41,610 nt of DNA from the IMG/VR virus record IMGVR_UViG_3300036798_000457, positions 1 through 41,610 of that record; one strand, given 5' to 3'. The notes beneath the pieces were generated by a model that was given only the letters and a program-made list of their open reading frames with translations, did no database searches and was not told where the DNA came from. Each line of letters begins with the position of its first letter. Position 1 is the stretch's first letter. Below are positions 5,039 through 37,043 of the stretch, one piece after another. This DNA comes from a virus. Its lineage: Duplodnaviria > Caudoviricetes. The position numbers were made by a program, and so were the translations under genes.

Positions 5039-5119
5039 ATCAAAACACTTTTTATAGAGCGCACCGCAGACGGGCTGCTCGACCTGGCGGTGCGCGCCAA
5101 GGCCCTGAAGCACGATTTA
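5039..5119 (+). pseudogene. Relic duplicated 5' end of the ATP-grasp gene
   Basis: Translates IKTLFIERTADGLLDLAVRAKALKHD versus MKVLFIEKTADGLLDLAIRAQAYGHE at 5540; the start position reads ATC instead of ATG. Confidence 0.85.
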
Positions 5120-5539
5120 CTGATGAAGATGGCGCCAGATTTGTTTGTTTTTGATTTTTATGACCAGCGTTTTGCTAACTTCATATTCGCGCGCAAGAGC
5201 GCGGCTGCTCTTGGCGCTGTGATAAATAACCAATGCTTGCTCGGGAGTTAGCACCGTCCAATGCCGCTCCTTACGCATCATATCCCAACTGTTGTCCTGT
5301 CCGCTTCCGATGAAGAGATGGTCTGGATTAACACACAAAGGTGTGTCGCATTCGTGGCAAACCCTCAACGATGGCGCGATAGGACCGCGATACAATTCGT
5401 AAGAAAAGCGATGGGCATAAACGCTTTTCTTGTTAACCCAGAACCGCCCATACCCATTGTGTGCTTTTCCTGTCCACAACCAACACCGTGGGCCAATGAT
5501 GACTTTTCCAAAGAATTTATCTGAGATGGAAGAGGTCAT
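5117..5539 (-). CDS. Free-standing HNH homing endonuclease with C-terminal HTH-like domain
   Basis: CWLWTG...GYGRF...AHRFSYE...CHECDTPLCVNPDHL motif; AT-rich; antisense to the late operon. Confidence 0.9.
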   Translation of the reverse strand: MTSSISDKFFGKVIIGPRCWLWTGKAHNGYGRFWVNKKSVYAHRFSYELYRGPIAPSLRVCHECDTPLCVNPDHLFIGSGQDNSWDMMRKERHWTVLTPEQALVIYHSAKSSRALAREYEVSKTLVIKIKNKQIWRHLHQ

Positions 5540-7825
5540 ATGAAGGTCCTATTTATAGAAAAAACCGCAGACGGTCTCTTGGATTTAGCTATTCGTGCGC
5601 AAGCTTATGGGCATGAAGCTATGTACTTCTTGCCTACATACGATCAATACAAAGCCCCTGTTGGCAGGGGCCTGGTCACCAGAGTGCCAAATTGGCGGGA
5701 TGCTGTCAATAAAGCGGATTTAATCATTTGCGGTGGAAACGACTATTGTGTTGCGGAGTTGGACCGCGTGCGTGCCAACGGCAAGCTGGTCGTCGGTTCG
5801 TGCGTCGAGGCCGAAACTTGGGAAAGTGACCGCGCGAAGGGCATGGCAGTATTTCGCGCCGCCGGGATCCCCGTCCCGCCCTACCGGTCGTTCACTGATT
5901 ATGACACCGCTATTGCCTACGTAAAAAAGCATGACCAGCCCTTTGTCTCAAAGCCCTCGGGACGGTGTGACGACAAGGCGATGTCCTATGTCGCCAAGAC
6001 CCCCGCCGATCTGGTGTACATGCTGCAGCGCTGGAAGCGCGCCGGCAAACGCATCGGTGAGGAATTTATCCTGCAGGAGAAGTTGCAGGGGATCGAATTC
6101 GCCGTTGGCGCGTGGTTTGGTCCGGGCGGTTTTGTCACCGAGTGGGAGGAGAATTTCGAGCACAAGAAGCTCTTTCCCGGTGATCTCGGACCCAACTGCT
6201 ATTCCGCTGATACTGAGGTGCTGACCGAAACGGGATGGAAATTCTGGCCCGACGTCGTGTCCTCCGACAAGATCGCCACACTCGTCAACGGCTATCTGAC
6301 ATTTGAAAAACCTTCTCAGCTTGTCGCCGCTCCCTTTAGGGGAGACATGATGTCGTGGCAATCGAATCGGGTCGATTTGATGGTTACGCCTGGTCATCAG
6401 ATGCACGTCACCGATCGAAACAGCGTTAGGGACGGCGAGCCTGAGTTTGGCTTTAAGCCGGCCCATGAGATTGTGGATTGCAAGATTGCCAAGAAATTTG
6501 CAGTGCTACGAACCGCCAGCTGGGCGGGGAACAAAACCATGTCCCCGGAAAAGGCGCGACTATTTGGCATGTTTATGGCCGATGGCTATGTCAAGCGGCG
6601 CTCAATTCAGTTTGGAAATTGCCCCGCGCACAAAGAGACGCTAATCCGCGCCGCCGCCCTTGCCTACGGCGTGACATGTCATCGCTACGGACCGGATATT
6701 TACATCAACAATGCCAGTTTGGCCTATGAATGGGCGTGGGTTCCCACGGCAACCGAGAAACGCGTCCCAGCAGAAATCATGAACGCTGAACCGCAGGTTA
6801 TCGCGGCGTTTCTTGAGGGGTTTGCACTTGACGCTTCCACCCGCGCTAATAACCGCATCTATACAACAGCCAGTCGTGGCATGGCTGACGACATCCAAGT
6901 TCTGCTGCTTAAGGTGGGGTTAGCAGGAAACATCAACGAGCGTGATCGCCGCGATGAGCCTGAAAGACTTTTGAAGGGTTATGTTGTTAAAGGTTCGTTG
7001 TCTTGGGATATCAGCGTCTCGTCAAATGCTCTGGCGTGGCTCAGACCGCGATATTGGCGGCCGGTTTGGTATGACGGTATGGTCTACTGCGCAACCGTTT
7101 CATCGCATGTTCTCTTTGTCCGCAGAAACGGCAAGGCCTGTTGGAACGGTCAGACCGGCGAGCTCGGCACCGTATCGCGCTGGGTGACAAAGTCGAAGCT
7201 CGCGGACAAGGTGTTGAAGCCTCTGGAGGTGTTTCTGCACCGCACCGGGTTTGTCGGCTGCATCGATGTCAGCGTCATCATCGACGAGGAGGGGACACCG
7301 TGGCCGCTGGAGTTCACCTCGCGCTGCGGCTGGCCGGCGTTTAATCTGGAGTGCGCCGCCTTCACCTGCGATCCGATTGAATTCATGCACGATTTAGCTG
7401 CGGGCAAGAACACAAAGAATGTTCATCAACTCGACGAAGTGGTTGTAGGCGTCGTGGTCGCATTGCCCGATTTCCCCTACTCCCACGCCACCCGGAAAGA
7501 GGTCGTTGGCGTGCCAATCTATGGTGTCACTCCCCAGCTGATGCCCCATCTGCACTTCGCCCAGGTCGCGATGGGCAACGCGCCCCAGGAAGCTGCCGTC
7601 AATCTCGAGGACGGCCCACTGCACGTGGCAGCCGGTGACTATGTCGTGATAGTATCCGGCACCGGCCCGACGGTGACTGCCGCGCGGCGCGGCGCTTACG
7701 GTCATGTGAAGCAGCTTTCCATGCCGGCTTCCCCTTTTTGGCGTATTGACGTGGGGCTTCGTCTGAAAAAGGAACTCCCAAAACTTCAGTCACTTGGATA
7801 TGCGACGGGGCTTTCTTTTACCTGA
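5540..7825 (+). CDS. PurD (GAR synthetase)-like ATP-grasp ligase, intein-interrupted (442 aa after splicing)
   Basis: WESDR..G...F..AGIPVPPY, PFVSKP, ILQEKLQGIE, EHKKLF.GDLGPN|TGELG (PurD GPNTGGMG loop), PLEFTSRCGWP. Confidence 0.8.
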   Translation: MKVLFIEKTADGLLDLAIRAQAYGHEAMYFLPTYDQYKAPVGRGLVTRVPNWRDAVNKADLIICGGNDYCVAELDRVRANGKLVVGSCVEAETWESDRAKGMAVFRAAGIPVPPYRSFTDYDTAIAYVKKHDQPFVSKPSGRCDDKAMSYVAKTPADLVYMLQRWKRAGKRIGEEFILQEKLQGIEFAVGAWFGPGGFVTEWEENFEHKKLFPGDLGPNCYSADTEVLTETGWKFWPDVVSSDKIATLVNGYLTFEKPSQLVAAPFRGDMMSWQSNRVDLMVTPGHQMHVTDRNSVRDGEPEFGFKPAHEIVDCKIAKKFAVLRTASWAGNKTMSPEKARLFGMFMADGYVKRRSIQFGNCPAHKETLIRAAALAYGVTCHRYGPDIYINNASLAYEWAWVPTATEKRVPAEIMNAEPQVIAAFLEGFALDASTRANNRIYTTASRGMADDIQVLLLKVGLAGNINERDRRDEPERLLKGYVVKGSLSWDISVSSNALAWLRPRYWRPVWYDGMVYCATVSSHVLFVRRNGKACWNGQTGELGTVSRWVTKSKLADKVLKPLEVFLHRTGFVGCIDVSVIIDEEGTPWPLEFTSRCGWPAFNLECAAFTCDPIEFMHDLAAGKNTKNVHQLDEVVVGVVVALPDFPYSHATRKEVVGVPIYGVTPQLMPHLHFAQVAMGNAPQEAAVNLEDGPLHVAAGDYVVIVSGTGPTVTAARRGAYGHVKQLSMPASPFWRIDVGLRLKKELPKLQSLGYATGLSFT
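6197..7153 (+). mobile_element. Intein (319 aa) with LAGLIDADG-type endonuclease region and C-terminal Gln
   Basis: Starts CYSADTEVLT..GW; block B VTPGHQM; LFGMFMADG and AFLEGFALDAS helices; ends VYCATV..HVLFVRRNGKACWNGQ|T; removal restores GPNTGELG. Confidence 0.9.
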
Positions 7826-7887: not shown

Positions 7888-8445
7888 TTAAATGGCATCT
7901 TGTTTCTCCGTCACTCCTATTGCTTCAGCCTCTTGCGCCGGCATGCCGATCACGTCCCGCAGATCGATGACGAGGGTGATTCGCGGTGTGGCGGCGAGAT
8001 TGATCGCGGCATGCCACAGCGAGGGGCGGGTCAGCACGACCTGACCCGGCTGCATCAGCCAGGGTTCAGGGGGGGACCAAAGATAAGCCTGAGGAGGACA
8101 GCGCACACCGACAAGGAGACGAAGGTGGCGCAGGCAATAAGGCCGTGTGTCCTGGCGCAGCGGTGCCGCCGCGCCGGGGTCGAGGAGCTCAAGATAAATC
8201 CGTCCTGGTAGAAGTCCCGGGCGTGCATCGAGAATCGTTCGGAGGATTGTATGCATTTCCGGCCAGCGGCCGGCGGGGCCTGTACGGCGATCGACAAAGG
8301 CACTGTCATCGTTCGGATCCCCATTCTTCTTCGGGCCGCGCAGCGGCAGGTGGCGAATGCCGGTTCCGGTGAAGAGCGGCATCCGCGACCTGAGCGAGGC
8401 GATCAGGTCATGCGGGTCGACCCAGCCGACCAGCTGAAAGTTCAT
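7888..8445 (-). CDS. Aspartyl/asparaginyl beta-hydroxylase-like 2OG-Fe(II) fold protein, first His apparently lost
   Basis: GRIYLELLDPG...RQD...MQPGQV...WHAAIN....RITLVIDLR matches the family layout; HxD reads RQD. Confidence 0.7.
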   Translation of the reverse strand: MNFQLVGWVDPHDLIASLRSRMPLFTGTGIRHLPLRGPKKNGDPNDDSAFVDRRTGPAGRWPEMHTILRTILDARPGLLPGRIYLELLDPGAAAPLRQDTRPYCLRHLRLLVGVRCPPQAYLWSPPEPWLMQPGQVVLTRPSLWHAAINLAATPRITLVIDLRDVIGMPAQEAEAIGVTEKQDAI

Positions 8446-18942: not shown

Positions 18943-19297
18943 AACTGTTGCAAAAATGCAACTATACTTTACGCTCGCGCCCGCGCGCAGTCGCATAATG
19001 AAAGTGGACCAGAGGCGTCACATGCAGCGATCGAGGTCCGCAGTCGCAACCAGCGCAGGAGCAATCGCTGCCGCATACTCTAGCATCATCTGCCAGAGCG
19101 AGCAGCGCTCAAGCGGTTGTGGTGGTGATGGGCGTTCAACGCCCAAATCACCACAGCACCAGAGCCCGAGCGAGCGGTCTCACCAAACGTGCCGTTCGGC
19201 GAAACCCGGGGAGCCCCGGACGGGGGCCGGAATATATTCCCCCCCTGTCTGAGATTGTTGCGGAATCCGGGAGTATGCAACCGGCGGTAGACCAAGG

Positions 19298-19580
19298 GTA
19301 CCCAGAACCCGGCTAGCGTGAGAACAGAGGGCGCTGAAGGCGTGGCGTTGAGACGCCACGGCGCCACAGGACGGTCCGTTGCGTGGGGTTCTGGGTACTG
19401 ATTTTTTCTTTTTTTGAGTGACGGGTCGGTTCTGAGGCGCGCCCCCCCGCTATGCGGGGGGTCTGAGCGCGCCCTCTGTTCGGGGATCGGGGTAGGTGTT
19501 TTTGTTGGAGAGGAAGGGCGTAGCGGCTTGGTTTAGGCGGCAGACAGGCGTCAGCTCCCGCCTGACGGCGGGTGACGCCC
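19298..19580. other. Cluster of inverted repeats and T-tracts upstream of repL (origin/packaging-end candidate)
   Basis: GTACCCAGAACCC(19298)/GGGTTCTGGGTAC(19386) enclosing CGTGGCGT-tgag-ACGCCACG; CCCCCCGC-tat-GCGGGGGG near 19442; GGCGTCA..CCCGCC-tgac-GGCGGG-TGACGCC near 19547. Confidence 0.6.
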
Positions 19581-19657
19581 TTTCCTCTTATAAGACAGAG
19601 AAGAAAGGGCAAATGCTATGTCTTTGGTATTATTGATAGAAATGCCAATGCGGGGTT

Positions 19658-19696
19658 CAATAGACTTGAACGAATTTACGCAATAGACTTGAACGA
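19658..19696. repeat. Two perfect 16-bp direct repeats CAATAGACTTGAACGA (iteron/operator candidate)
   Basis: 19658-19673 and 19681-19696, 23-bp period; first copy lies in the palindrome TTCAA-N5-TTGAA; immediately upstream of the rep gene. Confidence 0.8.
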
Positions 19697-19709
19697 TTCG
19701 GGGGATTTG

Positions 19710-20108
19710 ATGGCAAAGAAGAGCGCTTTTGGCAGGGGTCAGTTTATGTTGGTGAGTCAGAACGGGTTCTCGGCATTGCAGCAAGAGGCTCTGGCGAAGA
19801 AGCTGGGCATCCGCGAGTTGCGGGTGTTTTTCGAGATGCTGGCGAATACCGGGTACGACAATGTTGTGATGGTCAGTCAGGCTGACATTGGCCGGTTGAC
19901 GAGGATGGACATGGCTTCGGTGTCGCGCTCCTCAAAGGCGTTGCTTGATCAGGGGTTTGTGGAGCGATTGAACAACCGGCGCGGGTGGTATCGGATCAAT
20001 CCTAAATTTGCTTGGAAGGGTGGCGGTGAAGAGCATCGCGCCAGCCTGGCTCGCGAGGCTGAGGACGAATACCTGGAGAAGTTTGAGCAGCTGAAGGAGA
20101 TCGGCTGA
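19710..20108 (+). CDS. RepL-like (plasmid-type) winged-helix replication protein
   Basis: LRVFF.ML....YDNVV.VSQADIG....MDMASVSRS.KALL..GF.......YRINPKFAWKG. Confidence 0.7.
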   Translation: MAKKSAFGRGQFMLVSQNGFSALQQEALAKKLGIRELRVFFEMLANTGYDNVVMVSQADIGRLTRMDMASVSRSSKALLDQGFVERLNNRRGWYRINPKFAWKGGGEEHRASLAREAEDEYLEKFEQLKEIG

Positions 20109-20862: not shown

Positions 20863-21753
20863 TTAATGGACTTGCGGCAGGTTCTTTTTTGTGTCGGTCT
20901 TGATGTCGCGAATCTCCTTTTTGCCGTCGCGCAGCGCGTTCCAGGCATAGATCGCGCCCTGGTAAAGCTGCTTTGGCTTGACGGTGAATTCGCGGTCCTG
21001 GTAGCGCTCGAGCCAATCGTAGAGCACGCTGGTTGGCGAAGTCTCCTCGTACTCGCGGCCGCCGGCGACGACTTCGCGCCAGAAATCGTCGGCGGCATCG
21101 GCATCGACATTGTAGGTCGCGTAGATCGCCGCGATCACCGGCTGATGCATCAAGGGACGCACCCGACCACTAAAGAGACTGCCAAACCACTGGATAAAGG
21201 GGTGCTCGTCCTCCTCGTTAAACAGCACGTAGCGGTCATCGCCAACCGGCGTGCCGTCGCGGCGGCTGACATTCTTGCGAAACCACACCATCCCCTCGAC
21301 CGCCAGCTTGCCGAGATACCGCGGCACATCGTCGAGGTTGCTCTCGAGACCCTGGTAGGCGCCCGCGACATCGGCCGGGGAGCGCGCGCTCTTGCGCTCG
21401 TCAAACTGGCGGAAGAGCAACGCCAAGGCATCCATGTTGGTGCACTCAAAGGTGTCGACATGGACAAACATCCCCTCGGGAAACCGCCCGTCGACCGCCA
21501 CCAGCATGCTGGAGGAGTGCTGACCATTGGCGCGATAGGTGATGCCGTCGACCACCGCCTTGACCCAGTGCGGCGGATGAAACAACCCGGCGTAAAGCCG
21601 GTCGCGCAAAAAGTCGACGCGCTTCTGGTTGCACTCGCGCTCGGTCGGCGAGGCCGGCAAGGTGCGCATATCGTCAACCAAGCCGCGGGTCAGCGGCAGG
21701 GTTTCCGACTTCACCAGACGAAAGCAGGTTTGCTGTTCGGGTTGACCTGTCAT
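20863..21753 (-). CDS. ParB/Srx-fold, DGQHR-like domain protein
   Basis: ER.CNQKRV..L, YRANGQHS (DGQHR-like), LFRQFD...SARSPADV. Confidence 0.55.
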   Translation of the reverse strand: MTGQPEQQTCFRLVKSETLPLTRGLVDDMRTLPASPTERECNQKRVDFLRDRLYAGLFHPPHWVKAVVDGITYRANGQHSSSMLVAVDGRFPEGMFVHVDTFECTNMDALALLFRQFDERKSARSPADVAGAYQGLESNLDDVPRYLGKLAVEGMVWFRKNVSRRDGTPVGDDRYVLFNEEDEHPFIQWFGSLFSGRVRPLMHQPVIAAIYATYNVDADAADDFWREVVAGGREYEETSPTSVLYDWLERYQDREFTVKPKQLYQGAIYAWNALRDGKKEIRDIKTDTKKNLPQVH

Positions 21754-21818
21754 CGATTTACCCTTTATGGCGGAAGTAAAAGAAAAGGTGGCACGAAGCT
21801 TCCGCGCCCCGTGCCACC

Positions 21819-22586
21819 CTACTGGGTCCACTCATCAAGCATCTGCTGCATTTCGTCCGCAATCAGGGCGATAAGCGAAATCGCTATAGTCGCCATATTC
21901 TTGCGGCCCTCTGCCTTAAGCTTGATAACGAGGGGACCGAGTTTCTCGGCAAGCTCAACGGTGCTTACCGTGTTTGCCATTGGAAAGATGCGGTACTGGT
22001 AATCCTGGGCGCGCCGCCGGCGTTCGATTTTGTAACGCGATGGCGCGCTGCGCGAGGTGGCGGCGGCGAGAACCCGCTCGACGTCGTCCCGATCCCGACC
22101 GAGCCGGTTGGCGATCACATCGGTGCCGTGCCACTTGCCATTTGAATAGTGCTCGCGGACCTGATCCATCAGCGCATTGCGGGCGCGTGTCGGACCGGCG
22201 CGCTCTTCGGCCTTGATCATCTCGACCACGTGCAGAAAGCGCCGCCGCTCATTGCTGCCCTCCGACTGTTCCCAGTATTTGCGGAATTGTCTTTCGGACG
22301 TTATTTCCAAATTATGCCCAGTGGGCATATTCGCTGAAAAGGCCAAGAAACGACCAAAGCAAAGCATTCGAGAAAGATAGGATTGCGCCTTGCCTTCCTT
22401 TGCTGCCAGTTCTTCCTGGGTCCAGCCCGAACGCCAGAACAATTGCGCGAGTGCTTGCTCCCATCGAGTGCCGGCCTCGCTGCGACTGTCGCCAAACAGA
22501 TCGCGGAGGCGCTGACGCTCACGCTCGTAATCGCTCTCGCTCATCCGCGGCGGGGCAAACGGGACGACCGATGTCTCATCAGCCAT
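21819..22586 (-). CDS. HTH protein with ParB/KorB-like helix-turn-helix
   Basis: GWTQEELAAKEGKAQSYLSRML; second HTH-like segment DVIANRLGRDRDDVERVL. Confidence 0.6.
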   Translation of the reverse strand: MADETSVVPFAPPRMSESDYERERQRLRDLFGDSRSEAGTRWEQALAQLFWRSGWTQEELAAKEGKAQSYLSRMLCFGRFLAFSANMPTGHNLEITSERQFRKYWEQSEGSNERRRFLHVVEMIKAEERAGPTRARNALMDQVREHYSNGKWHGTDVIANRLGRDRDDVERVLAAATSRSAPSRYKIERRRRAQDYQYRIFPMANTVSTVELAEKLGPLVIKLKAEGRKNMATIAISLIALIADEMQQMLDEWTQ

Positions 22587-23407: not shown

Positions 23408-25489
23408 ATGATCGGCTCGGCTGCGCCCCGGGTGATCTCGCCGGTCGAGAGCCTCAAGGCGGACCTGCTCGAGCCGTTTTACCGCGACCGCTGGTACGCC
23501 CATCAATTGCTCTTTCAACACCGCCACCGCGACCGCTCGGCCCGGGTGCATCGCGAGCTCGTCCTGGCACTCAACGCGGCGCACGCCCGCCAGTCGATCG
23601 AGGGTTTTCGCGGCCTGGGCAAATCGACCTATGTCGAGGAGACCGCCGTCCTCAAGGCGATCTTTCAAGAGTTCCGCTTTCTCTTGATTGTCGGGGCGTC
23701 CCTCACCCGCGCGGCGGAAAGATTGTATCCGATCAAAATAGAACTCTTGCAGAACGAATCACTGCTGGCGCTGACCGGTGCGCTTAATGGCGATGTCTGG
23801 CGCGACGACAAGATCACTCTCAAAAACGGGGTGGCGATCCAGGCGATGGGTCGTGATCAGTCGATGACCGGGATCAAGCACAACGACTACCGGCCCGACG
23901 CCGTCATCATTGACGATGTCGAGGATCCCGAGGAGGTGCGCACCGACGAGCAGCGCGCGCAGACCTGGAACTGGCTGCTCAAAGTCCTGCTGCCGGCGCT
24001 TGATCACCCCGACCGCTCGTGGGTCCGCCATCTCGGCACAAGGCGCGGCTCGGGGAGCCTGCCCGAGCGGCTGGAGCAGGCGGGGTGGCCGGTCGCCAAG
24101 TTCCCCATCGAGTATTTGGGACAAGAGGGTGAGCGGCGGGCAACCTGGCCGGCGAAGTTTCCCTTGTCGGCGATCGACGAGCGGCGGCGGCTCTATGCCG
24201 GCGACCTCGAAACCTACTTGCAGGAGTACATGTGCGAGGCGACGAGCGCGGCGGCGCGAGTCTTTGCCCGCGAGACGATGCGGTTTGAGGCGCGGCGGCG
24301 CGATTGGCACGCGGTCTATGTGATGTACGACCCGGCACGCACCACGCACAAGGGCTCGGCGACAACGGGGAAGGCGGTGTGGTCGTGGCTCGGCAGGAGG
24401 CTTTATATCTGGGAGCTGCGCGCCGAGCGCTGGGCGCCGGACGAGATTGTCGCCGACATCCTCGAGACCAACGAGCGCTGGCGACCCACCTGGATCGGGG
24501 TCGAGAAGACCGGTCTCAACGAGTGGATCATGCAGCCGCTGCGGCAGGCCTCACGCGGGCGCATCCTGCCCTTGAAAGGGGTCGAGGCGCCGCGGGGCAA
24601 ACTCGATTTTATTCGCACCCTGCAACCGTTTTTTGCCAGTGGCGAAGTGGTGTTTATCGGGGAAGAGGAGGCTTACCGTGAAGCAATCCAGCAGTTCCAG
24701 ACCTTCCCGCGCGGGCGCATCGACGCCCCCAACGCGCTCGCCTACGCTGTCCTCCTCAGATCAGGACAACCCGTCTACGACGGATTTTCCGACGAAAATA
24801 TTGTTGGCGATCCAGGACAGTGGGGCGATGACAATCCACTCTTCTTTGCCGCTCACCACGACGGGTCTGTCGGCGTTGCTGTTCTGTGCCGGCGAAATCA
24901 TGGACAGTTGTGCATCCTCGCAGACTTTGTCCGAGAAGGCAGTCCAGGCGACATCGTGGGTGATATCGCGGCGGACGCCGCGCTCGTCGCCGGGGCCCGT
25001 CGAACCGGACAGCGCACCATCTGGGGCGAGGGCGAAGACCTCTACAAGCTCCCCCTCACCATTGCCCGCAGCGAAGCCGTGGACATTTCCTGGGTTGTCC
25101 CTCCCATTCACTTCGAGCGCTGGCGCAACACTGGCCTCGTCCAAGCTATCCGCCAGATCCCGGCAAAGGCTCAGCAAGGCGGTGAGCCGCTCGCAGGCCG
25201 CAGCCAAATCGCCGACCTCATCACCCGACGCCCGCACGGAGAACCCGGACTCGTTGTTAGCGAACGCGCCAGCTGGACCCTCAGAGCGCTTGCCGGCGGA
25301 TACGCTCGGCCTTTGGGCCGGCGGGGAATGGCCGAAGGCGAAGCCGAGCAGGGGGTCTACCGGTTGCTGATGGAAGCGGTTGAGAGTTTTGTCGGTGTGG
25401 GGGTGGCGACGCCGTCAGACGAGACGGTGCAGCCGATTGCCTATACCAAGGGCGGTGTGGCATACCGGAGTGCGATCCCGCAGCGCTGA
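23408..25489 (+). CDS. terL: Terminase large subunit with C-terminal extension
   Basis: Walker A GFRGLGKST, Walker B RPDAVIIDDVE, QEYM, nuclease YDPA / GVEK / FPRGRIDAPNALAY. Confidence 0.92.
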   Translation: MIGSAAPRVISPVESLKADLLEPFYRDRWYAHQLLFQHRHRDRSARVHRELVLALNAAHARQSIEGFRGLGKSTYVEETAVLKAIFQEFRFLLIVGASLTRAAERLYPIKIELLQNESLLALTGALNGDVWRDDKITLKNGVAIQAMGRDQSMTGIKHNDYRPDAVIIDDVEDPEEVRTDEQRAQTWNWLLKVLLPALDHPDRSWVRHLGTRRGSGSLPERLEQAGWPVAKFPIEYLGQEGERRATWPAKFPLSAIDERRRLYAGDLETYLQEYMCEATSAAARVFARETMRFEARRRDWHAVYVMYDPARTTHKGSATTGKAVWSWLGRRLYIWELRAERWAPDEIVADILETNERWRPTWIGVEKTGLNEWIMQPLRQASRGRILPLKGVEAPRGKLDFIRTLQPFFASGEVVFIGEEEAYREAIQQFQTFPRGRIDAPNALAYAVLLRSGQPVYDGFSDENIVGDPGQWGDDNPLFFAAHHDGSVGVAVLCRRNHGQLCILADFVREGSPGDIVGDIAADAALVAGARRTGQRTIWGEGEDLYKLPLTIARSEAVDISWVVPPIHFERWRNTGLVQAIRQIPAKAQQGGEPLAGRSQIADLITRRPHGEPGLVVSERASWTLRALAGGYARPLGRRGMAEGEAEQGVYRLLMEAVESFVGVGVATPSDETVQPIAYTKGGVAYRSAIPQR

Positions 25490-25870: not shown

Positions 25871-26070
25871 TGTCGCCGCGGCGTTGCGCCAATTGCGGCG
25901 ACACGCATCGCGCCGACGAGGTCTGCGCGGTGCATTGGGAAGCGCGCCTGACCGGGCATGAGGATCAGCAGGTCGGGGTTCCCGAGCATCAAACGGAATG
26001 GCCCTCCGGACACTACGGTCACGCCGATTACTGGATCGGATATCATGGCGGCAAACCCAAACCCGGTTGA
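25870..26070 (+). CDS. Small Cys/His-rich protein
   Basis: CANCGDTH...C..H; coupled to the upstream stop. Confidence 0.45.
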   Translation: MSPRRCANCGDTHRADEVCAVHWEARLTGHEDQQVGVPEHQTEWPSGHYGHADYWIGYHGGKPKPG

Positions 26071-28414
26071 CCTCGGCCCGGTTGACCTCGAGGGTGCCGA
26101 TCCCGGTGTGGCGGACGCCGGTCACCTGCGCGAGATCTCCTCGACCCGCCCCTCGGTGCTGACCCGCAAGGACGACCTCCTTGGCGAGCCGAATAGCGAA
26201 TGCCGCAAATGGCTGGAGAAGCGCTTCTCGGCGATTGCCCGTGGGTTTGAGGAGCAGTGTGACCGTTCCAACACCCTGGAAGAATACTGGAACTGTTACA
26301 ATTGCGAGCGCGACGACAACTCCTATTATAAGGGTGAGGCCGAGATCTATGTGCCGATCATTCACGACGCCGTAAAGGCGCTGACGACACGCTGGTCAAA
26401 CCAGCTGATGCCCAATATCGGGCGCTATGTCGAGGTGACTGCGTCGGATGGGCAGCAGCCTTACGAGATCGTGGCGTTGGTCAACCACTACATCAAGCAA
26501 GCAAAATTCAAGGCGAATGTCCTAAAGCCGCTGATCCGCAACGGGATCATCGAGGGGCAGTACAACCTCTATCTCGATTGGCAAGAGATCACCCGCTCGC
26601 TGGTTTCACGTGAAACACATGGCCGGCTGGTCGAGGGGCCAAAACCGGCCAGACCCGGCCCGCGCGGGATGCCGCCCGCGCCCGATCCGCTGGGGGATTT
26701 AGCGCCTGAGGGCGGCCCGGAGATCATCGATATTCGCGAGGAGGATATTGTCGAGGGACGCCCGGTTTTTGAGGTGCTGCACGATTCCGATGTGCTGGTC
26801 TTGCCGGCCACCGCCGATTCAATCGACGAGGCGCTTGAGGGCGGCGGGATGGCGGTCATCGTCCGGCGGTTCTCCAAGGAGGCTTTTAAGATTCTGGCGG
26901 TGGAGGAGGAGTTTGATTTCGGGGAGGGCGAGGACAATCACGATGAGGACGGGATGCCGATGGTGTTCTCGGTCACCCCGGAGATGACCGGTCTTACCGA
27001 CATCGCCAAAAAGCTGGTGCGCGATGTCGGGATCAAGTCGCGCGGCCGCCACGCCATCCTCTTTGAGGTGTGGCAGAAGGTGCCGCTCGGCGACGATGGC
27101 GATTTTGACGAGGACGGCGACATGCGCCTCTGCCGCACCTGGTACTCGTTGCACCGCGAAGCGATCGGTTTGAAGCGCAACCCGCACTGGAATGACCGCT
27201 GCCCCTTGCTGTCGCAACCGGTGGAGAAGCTCGCCGGGGTGTTTAAGGGGCGCAGCCAGATCGAATCGGTGCGCCAGCTGCAGTACGAAGCCAATGACGC
27301 GGCAAACGAGCGCGCCGATGTCGACCACATGGCGGCGATGCCGATCGTCCTCAACAAGGCGAGCGAGGGCAACTATCCGCGGCTCATCGCCAAGGGGGCG
27401 ATCTGGGACTATGTCGAGACACCACCGGCGATCCTCACCTTTCCCGATCTCTCGGGACGCGGCACCGAACGGGTGATGGCGGGGCAGGGGCTGGTCTTTC
27501 AGTCGCTCTCGGTCAACCCGGCGATGATCGCGCAGTCCACCGGGCGCGGCGGCGGCAAGCGCAACCAGGCCGAGGTGGCGATGGAGCAGCAGGTCGATCT
27601 CCTGACCACCGCCGAGGAGGTCGATGTCCTCGACGGGATGCTGACCGAGATGGTCGAGTTTGTCGTCGATATGGATCACCAGTACCGCGACCGCGATCTG
27701 GTTATCCGGCAATACGGTGAGCTCGGTATCCAGGCCGAAATGGTCGGCATCCCGCCGTTGCGCAACCGTAGCCAGTATGAATTCGCCTGGGCCGGCGCGA
27801 CGCAAATGCGGATGAATGTGGCGATGACGCAGAACGGCACGGCTCTGATCAATGTGCTGCGCGGGATGCAGCAGCAGTTAAAAGAGGAGGGGATGCAGCT
27901 TCGCCTCGCGCCGATCTTTGAATATCAGGTGGCAAGCGTCTTTGGACCGACCATTGCCCGCCGGGTGCTGCGCGATCTGCGCCACGAGTTGAGCGTCGAC
28001 CCCGAGGTCGAGAACGACATGCTGCGCGAGGGGCACGCCCTCCCGGTCAGTATGTTCGACAATGATCAAATGCACATTGCCGCGCATCAGCGGGCGATGC
28101 AGCGCGATGGCGATATCTACGGTACGCTGCGCATCCATCTGCAGGAGCACATCAAGCAGATGACGATGAGGAACATGGCGCAGCAGCAGCAGATGATGCA
28201 GGCGGGCGGGGCGCCGGGGGTGCCGGGCGGCGCGGCTTCGGGTGTCGCGGGAACCCCGCGGCCGGGTCAGATGGGGGCGCCGCCACGATTGGCCGGGACA
28301 CCGCCGGGGGCGCAGCCGATGCCGCCGCGTCTCGGGCCAAAACTCCCCGGACGGATCCCGCCGACCGCGATGCCGGCGGCCGGCGCGGCCAACATCATGC
28401 CGAGGCGTTTTTAA
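26045..28414 (+). CDS. Portal protein
   Basis: About 790 aa directly after TerL; YKGEAEIYVPIIHDAV, G.FKGRS....V..LQY.AND, Q/P-rich C-terminal tail. Confidence 0.85.
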   Translation: MAANPNPVDLGPVDLEGADPGVADAGHLREISSTRPSVLTRKDDLLGEPNSECRKWLEKRFSAIARGFEEQCDRSNTLEEYWNCYNCERDDNSYYKGEAEIYVPIIHDAVKALTTRWSNQLMPNIGRYVEVTASDGQQPYEIVALVNHYIKQAKFKANVLKPLIRNGIIEGQYNLYLDWQEITRSLVSRETHGRLVEGPKPARPGPRGMPPAPDPLGDLAPEGGPEIIDIREEDIVEGRPVFEVLHDSDVLVLPATADSIDEALEGGGMAVIVRRFSKEAFKILAVEEEFDFGEGEDNHDEDGMPMVFSVTPEMTGLTDIAKKLVRDVGIKSRGRHAILFEVWQKVPLGDDGDFDEDGDMRLCRTWYSLHREAIGLKRNPHWNDRCPLLSQPVEKLAGVFKGRSQIESVRQLQYEANDAANERADVDHMAAMPIVLNKASEGNYPRLIAKGAIWDYVETPPAILTFPDLSGRGTERVMAGQGLVFQSLSVNPAMIAQSTGRGGGKRNQAEVAMEQQVDLLTTAEEVDVLDGMLTEMVEFVVDMDHQYRDRDLVIRQYGELGIQAEMVGIPPLRNRSQYEFAWAGATQMRMNVAMTQNGTALINVLRGMQQQLKEEGMQLRLAPIFEYQVASVFGPTIARRVLRDLRHELSVDPEVENDMLREGHALPVSMFDNDQMHIAAHQRAMQRDGDIYGTLRIHLQEHIKQMTMRNMAQQQQMMQAGGAPGVPGGAASGVAGTPRPGQMGAPPRLAGTPPGAQPMPPRLGPKLPGRIPPTAMPAAGAANIMPRRF
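26602..26617. promoter_or_regulatory. parS: Chromosome-type parS site embedded in the portal CDS
   Basis: GGTTTCACGTGAAACA, 15/16 match to consensus TGTTTCACGTGAAACA; perfect 14-bp palindrome; five consecutive A/T-ending codons (VSRET) in a GC3-rich gene. Confidence 0.8.
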
Positions 28415-28869
28415 AGAGGCAGGTGGCCCCACCGCTTTCCTGATTTGATCCGCGAAACTTGCGACTGAGCTATGCCATAGGCAAGAGCAATTTTATCTTG
28501 AGTTCGAAAGTCGGAGCGAATAGCCAAGACTTGGCTTGTTGTTAATTTATTGTTGGATGTTTCTTCTCCATTAAATATGGGCTTTCGACCCTTAGCGATT
28601 TTATCGCGCTCGTTGTCGCGGGGAGTGCCAAGAAATAAGTGGTCGGGATTAACGCATTTTCGATTATCGCATTTATGCAAAATCCATAGCTTTTGTGGGA
28701 TTGGTCCGACAAACATAATGTAAGCCGCTCTATGAGCGTGAACCTCACCGGCTTTTGAATAGGAAAAACTTCCGTATCCTCCAGGGATTTTTGCTGCCAC
28801 CCATTCCCAGCAACTAGTGTTGGGATTGACCTCATATTTTGCGGTGAACCGCTCTAAGGCAGTTTTCAT
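28411..28869 (-). CDS. Free-standing HNH homing endonuclease (start could be 28884 or 28908)
   Basis: CWEW...GYGSF...AHRAAY...LHKCDNRKCVNPDHL; C-terminal HTH; AT-rich; antisense between portal and scaffold. Confidence 0.9.
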   Translation of the reverse strand: MKTALERFTAKYEVNPNTSCWEWVAAKIPGGYGSFSYSKAGEVHAHRAAYIMFVGPIPQKLWILHKCDNRKCVNPDHLFLGTPRDNERDKIAKGRKPIFNGEETSNNKLTTSQVLAIRSDFRTQDKIALAYGIAQSQVSRIKSGKRWGHLPL

Positions 28870-28918
28870 AATGCGATCATACATTGGGTTGGCATAATCG
28901 AGAAGCATGTAGCGGGAA

Positions 28919-29801: not shown

Positions 29802-31166
29802 ATGGCTGTAAATCTCAGTCCACAATATCAGGCCGCACTACGTCGCCAGCTGTCGCGCGAGGTGCTGCCGATCACCCAGCGTTACCTCGTCGCGCATCAG
29901 CACGCCATCAAGAAGCAGATGGAGGAAGGAGCGGGGGTTACCTGGACCGCGACGCGGTTCAGCCGGTTGCAACTGCCTTTTGCCCCGTTGTCGGAGGGTG
30001 TGCCGCCAACCGGCGAGCAACTCTCGATCAGCCAGGTGACCGGTGTCGCCTTGCAGTGGGGCGATAAGATCACCCTCTCGGACGTGTCGGTGATCGTCAC
30101 GATGTATGATCTGGTGAAGGAGGCACGCCATCTTCTCGGGGTGCAGATTGCGGAAACCCATGAGCGCAATGCGATGATGTGCTTGATGGGGTCGACCCAG
30201 GTCAATTATGTCGCGGCGCGCGGCAGCCGCGCTCTGCTTATCGCCGGCGATGTTCTCGACACGGTGACCCTCAACCGCACCTACTCAGATCTGCAGACCT
30301 TGGGGGCGCCCTTTGTCGGCGGGCAGATGGAGCCCGATATCACCCGCGATATCGAGCACGGGTCAAAGGCTTCAGAAAAGGGGCCGATGAACAGCGACCA
30401 CTATGTCGCCATTGTTCATCCGCTGGTCGCCAACGATCTGCGGCAGAACGCGCAGGTGCAGACTGCGTGGTCGTATAGCGATGTGACCCGGCTCTATATC
30501 AACGAGTTCGGCTATTGGAGCGGCATCCACTTTACCTGGTCAAACATGGTGCCGCAGTATTCCGGTCAGGCCGCGCCGACGGGCACACCCGGAACCTCTG
30601 GCAATTTGGCGGCCGGCAACTACGTTATCCAGATCACTGGGACCGACACGCTCAACCTGCGGGGCGAGCAATACATTACCCAGGTTTCGGCGGCGATTAC
30701 GACGACCGGCACCACGGGGTCGATCGCCGTGACCATGCCGGCCAATGCCAACTACACCTATACGGTCTATATCTCGGCGGTAGGCTCGACCACGCCAACC
30801 AATATCGCCACCACCTCGACGACGGGTGTCGGTGTGCCGACAAGTGGCCCGCTCACCGGTCAGGCGACCCAGATCGCCGCCGGCTCGGCGGTCACCCTGA
30901 CCGGGATCGGCGCTTTCCAGATCCCGCCCGCGGCCCCGGCCACAGGTGTCACGGTCTTCCCCACCTTTGTCATGGGCGAGCAGTACTATGCCTGCCTCGA
31001 ACTCAAGGACGTGAGCTATACCTTCCTCGATACCGCAGACAAGTCGGACCCGTTGAATCAGCTCCGTGTGATAGGCTGGAAGATGATGGAAGGCTGGGTC
31101 ATTCTCAACCAGCAGTTTGGTTGTAGGATCGAAAGCACCGCATCAAATACCGGGGCTTTCGCGTGA
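29802..31166 (+). CDS. Major capsid protein (N4-gp56-like) with inserted beta-rich domain
   Basis: PLSEGVPP, QWGDKITLSD, YVAIVHP....DL, NEFG..SGI.F, DKSDPLNQLRVIGWK. Confidence 0.9.
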   Translation: MAVNLSPQYQAALRRQLSREVLPITQRYLVAHQHAIKKQMEEGAGVTWTATRFSRLQLPFAPLSEGVPPTGEQLSISQVTGVALQWGDKITLSDVSVIVTMYDLVKEARHLLGVQIAETHERNAMMCLMGSTQVNYVAARGSRALLIAGDVLDTVTLNRTYSDLQTLGAPFVGGQMEPDITRDIEHGSKASEKGPMNSDHYVAIVHPLVANDLRQNAQVQTAWSYSDVTRLYINEFGYWSGIHFTWSNMVPQYSGQAAPTGTPGTSGNLAAGNYVIQITGTDTLNLRGEQYITQVSAAITTTGTTGSIAVTMPANANYTYTVYISAVGSTTPTNIATTSTTGVGVPTSGPLTGQATQIAAGSAVTLTGIGAFQIPPAAPATGVTVFPTFVMGEQYYACLELKDVSYTFLDTADKSDPLNQLRVIGWKMMEGWVILNQQFGCRIESTASNTGAFA

Positions 31167-36459: not shown

Positions 36460-36621
36460 ATGCCTGCTCGCGTTAAAAGATTTTCTGCAAAAGAGGACCG
36501 CCAGGCGGCGCACATTGCGGCGTCGGAGAGGGCGCGTGGCAAGTCGGCGAAGGAAGCGAAGAGCATCGGTTACGCAGTTGTCCAAGCACACAAAGGCAAG
36601 AAGAGAAAGCCCCGTAAATGA
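36460..36621 (+). CDS. 53-aa basic protein, ChaB-like (not in ORF track)
   Basis: GAGGAG SD; MPARVKRFSAKEDRQAAHIAASERARGKSAKEAKSIGYAVVQ... Confidence 0.7.
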   Translation: MPARVKRFSAKEDRQAAHIAASERARGKSAKEAKSIGYAVVQAHKGKKRKPRK

Positions 36622-37043
36622 TTGGTCCGGCGCGCTTGCAGGATAAGATCATGCCTGAGCCAAATTCAGGATGCTGGCTTTGGGTTGGTGCTGCTAACCC
36701 TCTCGGGTATGGTTCATTTCGATTGAACGGCAGAACCGTCTCGGCTCATCGCGTGGTATATGAACTCGCCAAAGGGCCGATCTCTATGGGTTTGACTCTA
36801 GATCACAAATGTCGTGTTCGATCTTGCGTTAATCCTGAGCATCTTGAGCCGGTAACCCTCAAAGAGAATATTCTAAGAGGAGAAAGTCCTCAGGCGAGGA
36901 ACGCCCGGAAAGAGTTGTGTATGCATGGTCACCAATTAAGCCCGGACAATCGAGGGCATAGGATGTGCAAAACCTGCGCTCGTCTTTCTTGGCCGGAAAG
37001 AAAGAGGCGTTATACGGAGCGGTTACAACGGAGGAAGAGATGA
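36618..37043 (+). CDS. Free-standing HNH homing endonuclease
   Basis: EPNSGCWLW, GYG, AHRVVYE, LDHKCRVRSCVNPEHLEPVT..EN, C..GH...C..C. Confidence 0.9.
   Translation: MIGPARLQDKIMPEPNSGCWLWVGAANPLGYGSFRLNGRTVSAHRVVYELAKGPISMGLTLDHKCRVRSCVNPEHLEPVTLKENILRGESPQARNARKELCMHGHQLSPDNRGHRMCKTCARLSWPERKRRYTERLQRRKR

Follow-up and report, generated by a model that had tools for sequence, protein, structure and literature searches.

The portal gene and its position

The DNA analysed here (the window) is the whole virus record IMGVR_UViG_3300036798_000457, a tailed phage genome of 41,610 nucleotides (Duplodnaviria; Caudoviricetes). The record is complete (41.6 kb) and carries direct terminal repeats. 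An open reading frame (ORF) at 25958-28414, located between the terminase and the major capsid genes, has no Pfam or PHROG match. Its predicted structural model matches podovirus portals, namely that of N4 (E 2.7e-17) and SU10/P22-like clusters, and by this modelled fold together with its gene position the ORF is a podovirus-type portal gene. The true start is probably a later ATG near 26045, because the database call of the protein has 789 amino acids (aa). Within this gene lies a palindrome that resembles parS, the site bound by ParB on bacterial chromosomes, and this element is the subject of the present analysis. A close cultured relative was not found: a search of 50,697 phage records returned no match to the portal, and the matches to capsid and terminase were all below 30%. 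The stretch is contained in one DNA sequencing run, which is labelled soil metagenome and is possibly its source; no RNA run was listed as containing it. The features of the locus are:

25958..28414, plus strand: portal gene, P22/N4/SU10-like podovirus fold (model match, position)
26602..26617, no strand: host-type parS 16-mer with one mismatch at the outer base (motif match, palindrome, codon conservation)
23408..25489, plus strand: terminase large subunit, upstream of the portal gene on the same strand (phrog_38, E 1.3e-55)
29802..31166, plus strand: major capsid protein (phrog_1357)

A host-type parS inside the portal gene

The element GGTTTCACGTGAAACA occupies window positions 26602-26617 and agrees with the consensus parS 16-mer at 15 of 16 positions, the sole mismatch being the first (outer) base; the same variant is also present in an alphaproteobacterial genome (G180). 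The central 14 bp (26603-26616) form a perfect palindrome; the window has three perfect palindromes of this length. When the window was scanned for the parS 16-mer with up to three mismatches, this was the single match. Together with the fold and position of the ORF, the scan bears out the original prediction of a host-type parS in the portal gene. At the same loose threshold 7 of 100 shuffled windows contained a match as well, so the single window, taken alone, is modest evidence.

The site reads in frame as GTT TCA CGT GAA ACA and encodes V187-S188-R189-E190-T191 (VSRET) of the portal (P0001 numbering). Five A/T-ending codons in a gene that otherwise favours G or C had been pointed out before. 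The gene indeed has G or C at a fraction of 0.80 of its third codon positions, and the run in fact comprises six such codons (CAT follows the five) and is the longest in the ORF. With VSRET given and codon frequencies taken from 14 long ORFs of the window, the joint probability of the five codons is 5e-5. In the predicted structure the site forms the far end of a long beta-strand (residues 172-192), directly before a variable loop of low confidence (about residues 193-226). The association with a proline-rich loop therefore stands as far as adjacency is concerned; the site adjoins this loop but is not part of it.

Conservation of the site as DNA

A protein search yielded 235 portal homologues, and the best 120 were inspected for VSRET, which was found in 92 of them. 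A search with the alignment of 118 homologues then gave 165 loci, of which 80 are the top-ranking ones of 283 viral hits, 79 come from the 80 top-ranking of 269 metagenomic hits and 6 are genomic, with redundancy between the three sets. Including the window, 166 portals were compared; 15 do not cover the site and were dropped, and the remaining 151 fall into 78 clusters at 80% identity. VSRET is kept in 35 of the 78 clusters, whose pairwise protein identity ranges from 38 to 80% (median 50%). The exact 14-mer is present in 32 of these 35 VSRET clusters and in 34 when one mismatch is allowed. At 60% clustering the corresponding numbers are 11 and 13 of 14.

The codons used at the site are rare elsewhere in the same genes (GTT 0.09, TCA 0.03, CGT 0.06, GAA 0.23, ACA 0.05), and the five site columns take ranks 1-5 of 256 conserved columns for the excess use of one codon. 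Identical codons are shared between pairs of genes at a frequency of 0.86 at the site, compared with a median of 0.51 and a maximum of 0.68 elsewhere. At the site 24 of 200 third positions are G or C, in contrast to 478 of 600 in the stretch directly upstream; in the outgroup, the same columns have 144 of 185. The preceding codon supplies the outer T of the 16-mer, and this base is retained in 32 of 40 cases. The only A/T-rich 12-mers common to all 11 genomes compared are parS words. As constraint on the protein cannot fix rare synonymous codons, the site is selected as DNA, and by these codon data the palindrome is kept independently of the encoded protein. An intergenic copy in one relative (L247, see below) points in the same direction as the silent sites. 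It had been proposed to align the portals of relatives, and varied VSRET codons among them would have spoken against the prediction; instead, the codons turned out to be fixed.

Distribution among related phages

The distribution of the site, counted within two mismatches, was mapped on a tree from which the site columns had been left out. One clade (support 0.984) contains the site in 37 of its 41 clusters, whereas only 1 of the 37 clusters outside has it. The single outside carrier (L296) is weakly placed in the tree. Since the site is almost confined to one clade, the carriers mostly share one origin, which was followed by long retention. The outgroup shows V/A/T-x-R/K at the corresponding residues: 36 of 37 outgroup clusters have R or K at 189, and V is frequent at 187, while positions 188, 190 and 191 vary freely and the codons mostly end in G or C. 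Only S188, E190 and T191 thus had to be imposed, and the site was probably accommodated in a strand with a pre-existing preference for V-x-R.

Copy numbers were determined in 26 viral records, chosen mostly for length. One copy was found in 20 of them, none in 6 and two in none. In L247 the portal reads VNRVK and lacks the site, but 1.5 kb upstream, in the intergenic DNA that precedes a GH25 lysin gene, there is a copy with one mismatch; this one case looks like a relocation of the site, judged from its sequence and position. In L223 the site carries a variant (Arg to Cys) that is also found in alphaproteobacterial chromosomes. An apparent 16-mer in another reading frame in L299 (LFHVKH) was rejected, as this locus has many single-base indels in comparison to its sister L225 and its true frame is VSRET.

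Chromosomal parS sites and the host

That the palindrome is the bacterial chromosomal parS, as the original prediction had it, was confirmed by two lines of evidence. A perfect 16-mer is situated between mnmE and mnmG-rsmG-parA-parB in a Burkholderiales metagenome-assembled genome (MAG). In addition, the 16-mer with at most one mismatch was found in 138 of 151 alphaproteobacterial genomes, mostly in two copies, while the reversed control occurred in 5. The sample represents the class to which an Acetobacteraceae MAG belongs, the Alphaproteobacteria, and the tally includes one genome (G067) flagged as unpublished. By its sequence, the site is a host-type chromosomal parS.

The parS sequence does not identify the host, because other groups use the same sequence. 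The genomes themselves give weak indications, which agree in suggesting an alphaproteobacterium. GcrA-like genes are present in 4 of 32 records, and the two over the cut-off belong to near-identical phages; they are found at L308:16003-16317 (G008, just upstream of the terminase) and in G021, with weak matches in G013 and G034. Among 16 interrupted palindromes, GANTC shows the strongest depletion in 6 of 7 genomes; its observed/expected ratio is 0.67 for the clade and 0.65 for the outgroup, compared to a median of 0.90 in 14 unrelated contigs of matched GC content. This motif is linked to alphaproteobacterial CcrM. The best annotated matches of the helicase are those of the Wolbachia phage WO. 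The bins that hold relatives are taxonomically mixed, and cluster look-ups returned no host names.

One contig (G029:C18) was considered as evidence for a prophage and its host and was rejected as a probable chimera. In this contig about 15.8 kb of indel-rich phage DNA is joined to genes of a Verrucomicrobiae MAG inside a truncated helix-turn-helix (HTH) gene, before ispH (L353 near 15860), and neither an integrase nor a tRNA is found at the junction. The parS of this MAG differs at two positions. A host parS variant inside the mnmG coding sequence of a Verrucomicrobiae MAG (L350:8618, frame FHVE) is a chromosomal parallel to the in-gene site of the phage.

Integration, partition and replication genes

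Among 19 records, 15 of which are at least 90% complete, none yielded tyrosine integrase (PF00589), ParB_N (PF02195) or ParA (PF13614), while 14 control genomes were positive in 14, 11 and 14 cases, respectively. A serine resolvase was detected in 0 of 5 genomes searched, and no clear dif-like site above chance was seen. The absence of an integrase and of ParA, already noticed in the window, hence extends to the relatives and includes canonical ParB. As no standard partition or integrase genes were found, the site likely serves the loading of host ParB. Three genes of the window have to be considered in this context:

19710..20108, plus strand: RepL-like winged-helix gene, 132 aa, matching positions 53-133 of a 164-position model
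20863..21831, minus strand: uncharacterised protein of about 296 aa with a weakly ParB/Srx-like N-terminal domain (structure searches)
21819..22586, minus strand: HTH protein with weak, sub-threshold ParB/KorB-type HTH matches, adjoining 20863..21831

The RepL-like initiator named in the original prediction does exist in the window, where the model scores over the cut-off as a partial match, but it is not a property of the clade, since the model scores in only 2 of 19 genomes. Homologues were detected by tblastn in 9 partly redundant loci. Upstream of the gene an exact 16-bp direct repeat is found at 19658 and 19681. The non-coding region 19150-19700 contains nested 13-bp inverted repeats (19298/19386 and 19322/19469), has a folding z of -2.3 and no Rfam match; it is a candidate origin or regulatory RNA.

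Two structure searches gave ParB, Noc, PadC and Srx as the best matches of the N-terminal domain encoded at 20863-21831, all of them weak (Foldseek E 0.03 or worse, Z 5.1-5.6). The gene has no Pfam, NCBIfam or PDB sequence match. Its family counts 254 homologues with a conserved R-x-NGQH; the consensus is NGQHSS and lacks the arginine of the GxxR box. The protein is thus not a canonical ParB, for which matches to Pfam ParB_N or HTH_ParB and a GxxR box would be expected. The cassette 20863-22586 was detected neither in the 165 related loci nor in the fetched pieces of whole genomes, and therefore probably does not account for a site that is present across the clade. Orphan ParB-fold proteins are common in phages (PMC12704722). 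As Pfam misses this divergent ParB fold, other such genes could be missed in the relatives. Instead of adjoining oriC and a cognate parAB operon, the site lies on a complete phage genome in which neither ParA nor canonical ParB was found; as its sequence indicates, it is a borrowed host centromere and not part of a phage ParABS system.

Proposed function of the site

Host ParB very probably binds the site. We see an even chance that the benefit consists in the positioning or inheritance of phage DNA in a transient carrier state and not in stable plasmid lysogeny. According to this proposal, the non-integrated phage DNA would be loaded with host ParB at its single site and, as long as lysis is delayed, be placed and transported by ParA/ParB of the host; for example, the genome could be held at the pole, or be passed to one daughter or to a resting cell. 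The precedent is Bacillus phage phi29, in which five parS sites are used with Spo0J for entrapment in the spore, as far as the accessible text of that work goes (PMC2731898).

Several observations weigh against such a carrier state. VSRET is absent from 28 of the 120 inspected homologues (one of these does not cover the region), and the 6 site-free records among the 26 have no copy at two mismatches. One of them, G009, is a complete genome that belongs to the clade; its VSRET is written in G/C codons, and a scan allowing three mismatches revealed no copy. Some lineages can thus do without the site. The VSRET carriers mostly have a common origin, and the 32 clusters are consequently not independent gains. 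The site-free relatives lack an integrase too; the missing integrase therefore does not explain the site, and the two traits are not coupled. Palindromes of 6 bp are strongly avoided in G001, G008, G011 and G013 (of about 40 words, 11-19 occur at less than 0.2 of the expected number). Strong avoidance of palindromes is a pattern usually linked to lytic phages. Finally, a strong parS on a low-copy plasmid reduces the viability of Caulobacter about 1000-fold, as stated in the part of the report available (PMC5815017), which fits interference as well as carriage.

Interference is the main rival to carriage, though an unlikely one. In the lytic phase, tens to hundreds of replicated genomes would outnumber the usual two sites of the host and draw off ParB (and ParA, MipZ or SMC), whereby chromosome segregation and division would be blocked and the burst enlarged. 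The two sites in most alphaproteobacterial genomes, the toxicity of even a single strong plasmid-borne parS in Caulobacter, the avoidance of restriction-like palindromes in the relatives and the lack of a plasmid record of a close relative all agree with this idea. However, a sponge should profit from more copies, and the strict single copy (20 of 26 records with one, none with two) argues against it. A regulatory or organising use is distinctly unlikely. Here, spreading of ParB from the site, which lies about 3 kb inside the region of packaging genes, would silence late genes or report the cell-cycle state of the host, or SMC loading would organise or shield the phage circle. Indeed, the site keeps to the terminase-portal region, in which the intergenic copy of L247 is also found. 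In Caulobacter, as the accessible text has it, ParB covers about 10 kb around parS and an ectopic parS recruits SMC (PMC5815017), and alphaproteobacterial phages are described, in the part of the source available, as reading the host cell-cycle regulator CtrA (PMC9437464). The GcrA-like genes, over the cut-off in two records, would also suit such a use. On the other hand, the site is distant from any evident promoter, and in 7 genomes no full CtrA box was detected.

The first option of the original prediction was an episome that replicates from RepL and borrows host ParABS. A stable plasmid prophage of this kind is very unlikely, even if the genome is complete without an integrase and contains the RepL-like gene with its upstream direct repeat as well as Xre-like HTH genes. 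Replication and resolution genes are not shared (RepL 2 of 19, resolvase 0 of 5, no clear dif-like site) and strong plasmid-borne parS is toxic in Caulobacter, both of which make stable plasmid lysogeny less likely. In PLSDB, a search with the capsid returned only two partial matches of 28%. Among 185,579 species genomes a search of limited sensitivity found the portal on only six contigs (13-59 kb), five of them titled as MAGs or uncultured bins and one from a binned assembly. What stands of the episome proposal is the presence of RepL and the absence of an integrase; the rest is weakened by these results and by the site-free relatives that lack an integrase as well. That the site is an operator or loading site of a phage-encoded protein, for instance from the cassette 20863-22586, and only resembles host parS is highly unlikely. 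The ParB/Noc/Srx-like domain beside a weak ParB-type HTH in the window and the ease with which Pfam overlooks divergent folds speak for such a reader. Against it, the cassette was not detected in any of the 165 related loci while the site is clade-wide, the match to host parS extends to the outer bases, and the L223 variant is a chromosomal variant. Protein-level constraint, chance or a recoded target of an intein or homing endonuclease are scarcely credible and largely refuted by the silent sites. The retention of R or K at 189 and the frequent V187 in the outgroup could hint at the first, the HNH genes near the portal at the last. Yet the outgroup varies freely at three of the five positions and uses G/C-ending codons; no intein-sized insertion was seen at the site in 120 proteins or 151 loci, and recoding for escape would diversify the target instead of converging on one palindrome.

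Comparison with known systems and wider occurrence

The closest parallel to a transient carrier state based on host ParB is phi29, a non-integrating podovirus without its own ParAB that bears host-type parS, with host ParB as the proposed reader in the accessible text (PMC2731898). We infer that the site works like those of phi29, single copy aside; the site itself is real and the selection on it strong. Phi29 has five sites, while this clade has one and so does not share the multi-site arrangement, and here the site lies in frame in an essential structural gene, where five portal residues are fixed by it throughout a clade with 38-80% protein identity. Entrapment in spores of the Bacillus type would not apply if, as is probable, the host is a non-sporulating alphaproteobacterium. 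With the chromosomal parS of Caulobacter the phage site shares the 16-bp palindrome and the occurrence inside coding sequence, which is also known from host sites (mnmG, L350; for Caulobacter see the available part of PMC5815017); it differs in being on a phage, in single copy and without cognate parAB. Plasmid prophages with partition systems of their own, such as P1 or the extrachromosomal prophages of mycobacteria, likewise have no integrase, and a RepL-like gene is present in this genome. In contrast to the P1 type, however, no phage ParA or canonical ParB and no resolvase were found, the centromere is of host type and there is no plasmid record. Phages with CtrA sites, for which 'lytic deferment' has been proposed in the part of the source available (PMC9437464), also bear sites for a host cell-cycle protein on their DNA, but here the protein would be ParB instead of CtrA, the site is in a gene and not in promoters, and the CtrA box is lacking as mentioned above.

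The 14-mer is found in an estimated 8,400 stretches of IMG/VR (extrapolated from 1/64 of the collection), whereas the two controls, counted in the full collection, gave 29 (reversed word) and 88 (permuted palindrome that shares the core). This excess in viral contigs of at least about 100-fold over two matched controls suggests that the strategy is common. In the first 80 of 134 loci with the 14-mer, 52 of 100 distinct sites are in open frames of at least 120 codons. Of these frames, 33 were scanned, with hits that include terminases, portals, DNA polymerases (including B), tail proteins, an endolysin and a primase, but no mnmG, rsmG or ParB. The phages concerned (loci L001-L080) are unrelated ones, phi29-like phages among them; in the remaining loci host contamination is possible.

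It is conceivable, though we put it forward tentatively, that centromere mimicry is a widespread and so far unrecognised strategy beyond spore-forming Bacillus. Non-integrating phages of asymmetrically dividing Alphaproteobacteria would write one host parS into an essential gene, and ParB/ParA/PopZ would anchor the incoming genome at a pole and decide which daughter inherits the infection. If so, vertical transmission without lysogeny would be at hand, and thousands of unrelated viral contigs would carry such sites, many of them inside terminase, portal, polymerase or tail genes. The evolutionary evidence is unusually clean: a host chromosome-segregation signal is selected in phage DNA and, throughout a deep clade, fixes five residues of an essential virion protein. 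The only experimental precedent found is that of phi29 in sporulating Bacillus. In the literature, with most subscription papers outside the search, neither a single in-frame portal parS conserved across a clade nor a survey of host-type parS in phages was found. A paper on a Staphylococcus phage was rejected as a precedent because its accessible part concerns a phage parB-like gene and not host parS sites (PMC10286716). Since the single site can be removed by silent changes, it offers a direct test of how non-integrating phages persist in, or take over, dividing or dormant cells.

Other genes of the window

The scan of the window detected no Rfam family, and no tRNA was found. Xre-like HTH genes are present. 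There are three free-standing HNH endonuclease genes at 5117-5539, 28411-28908 and 36618-37043, one of which directly follows the portal gene on the opposite strand. The plus-strand gene at 5540-7825 encodes a PurD-like ATP-grasp protein with a LAGLIDADG intein and has homologues in 7 of 7 genomes compared. Beside it, an Asp/Arg beta-hydroxylase-like gene at 7888-8445 (minus strand) is widely shared, and the two genes possibly form a module for virion or DNA modification.

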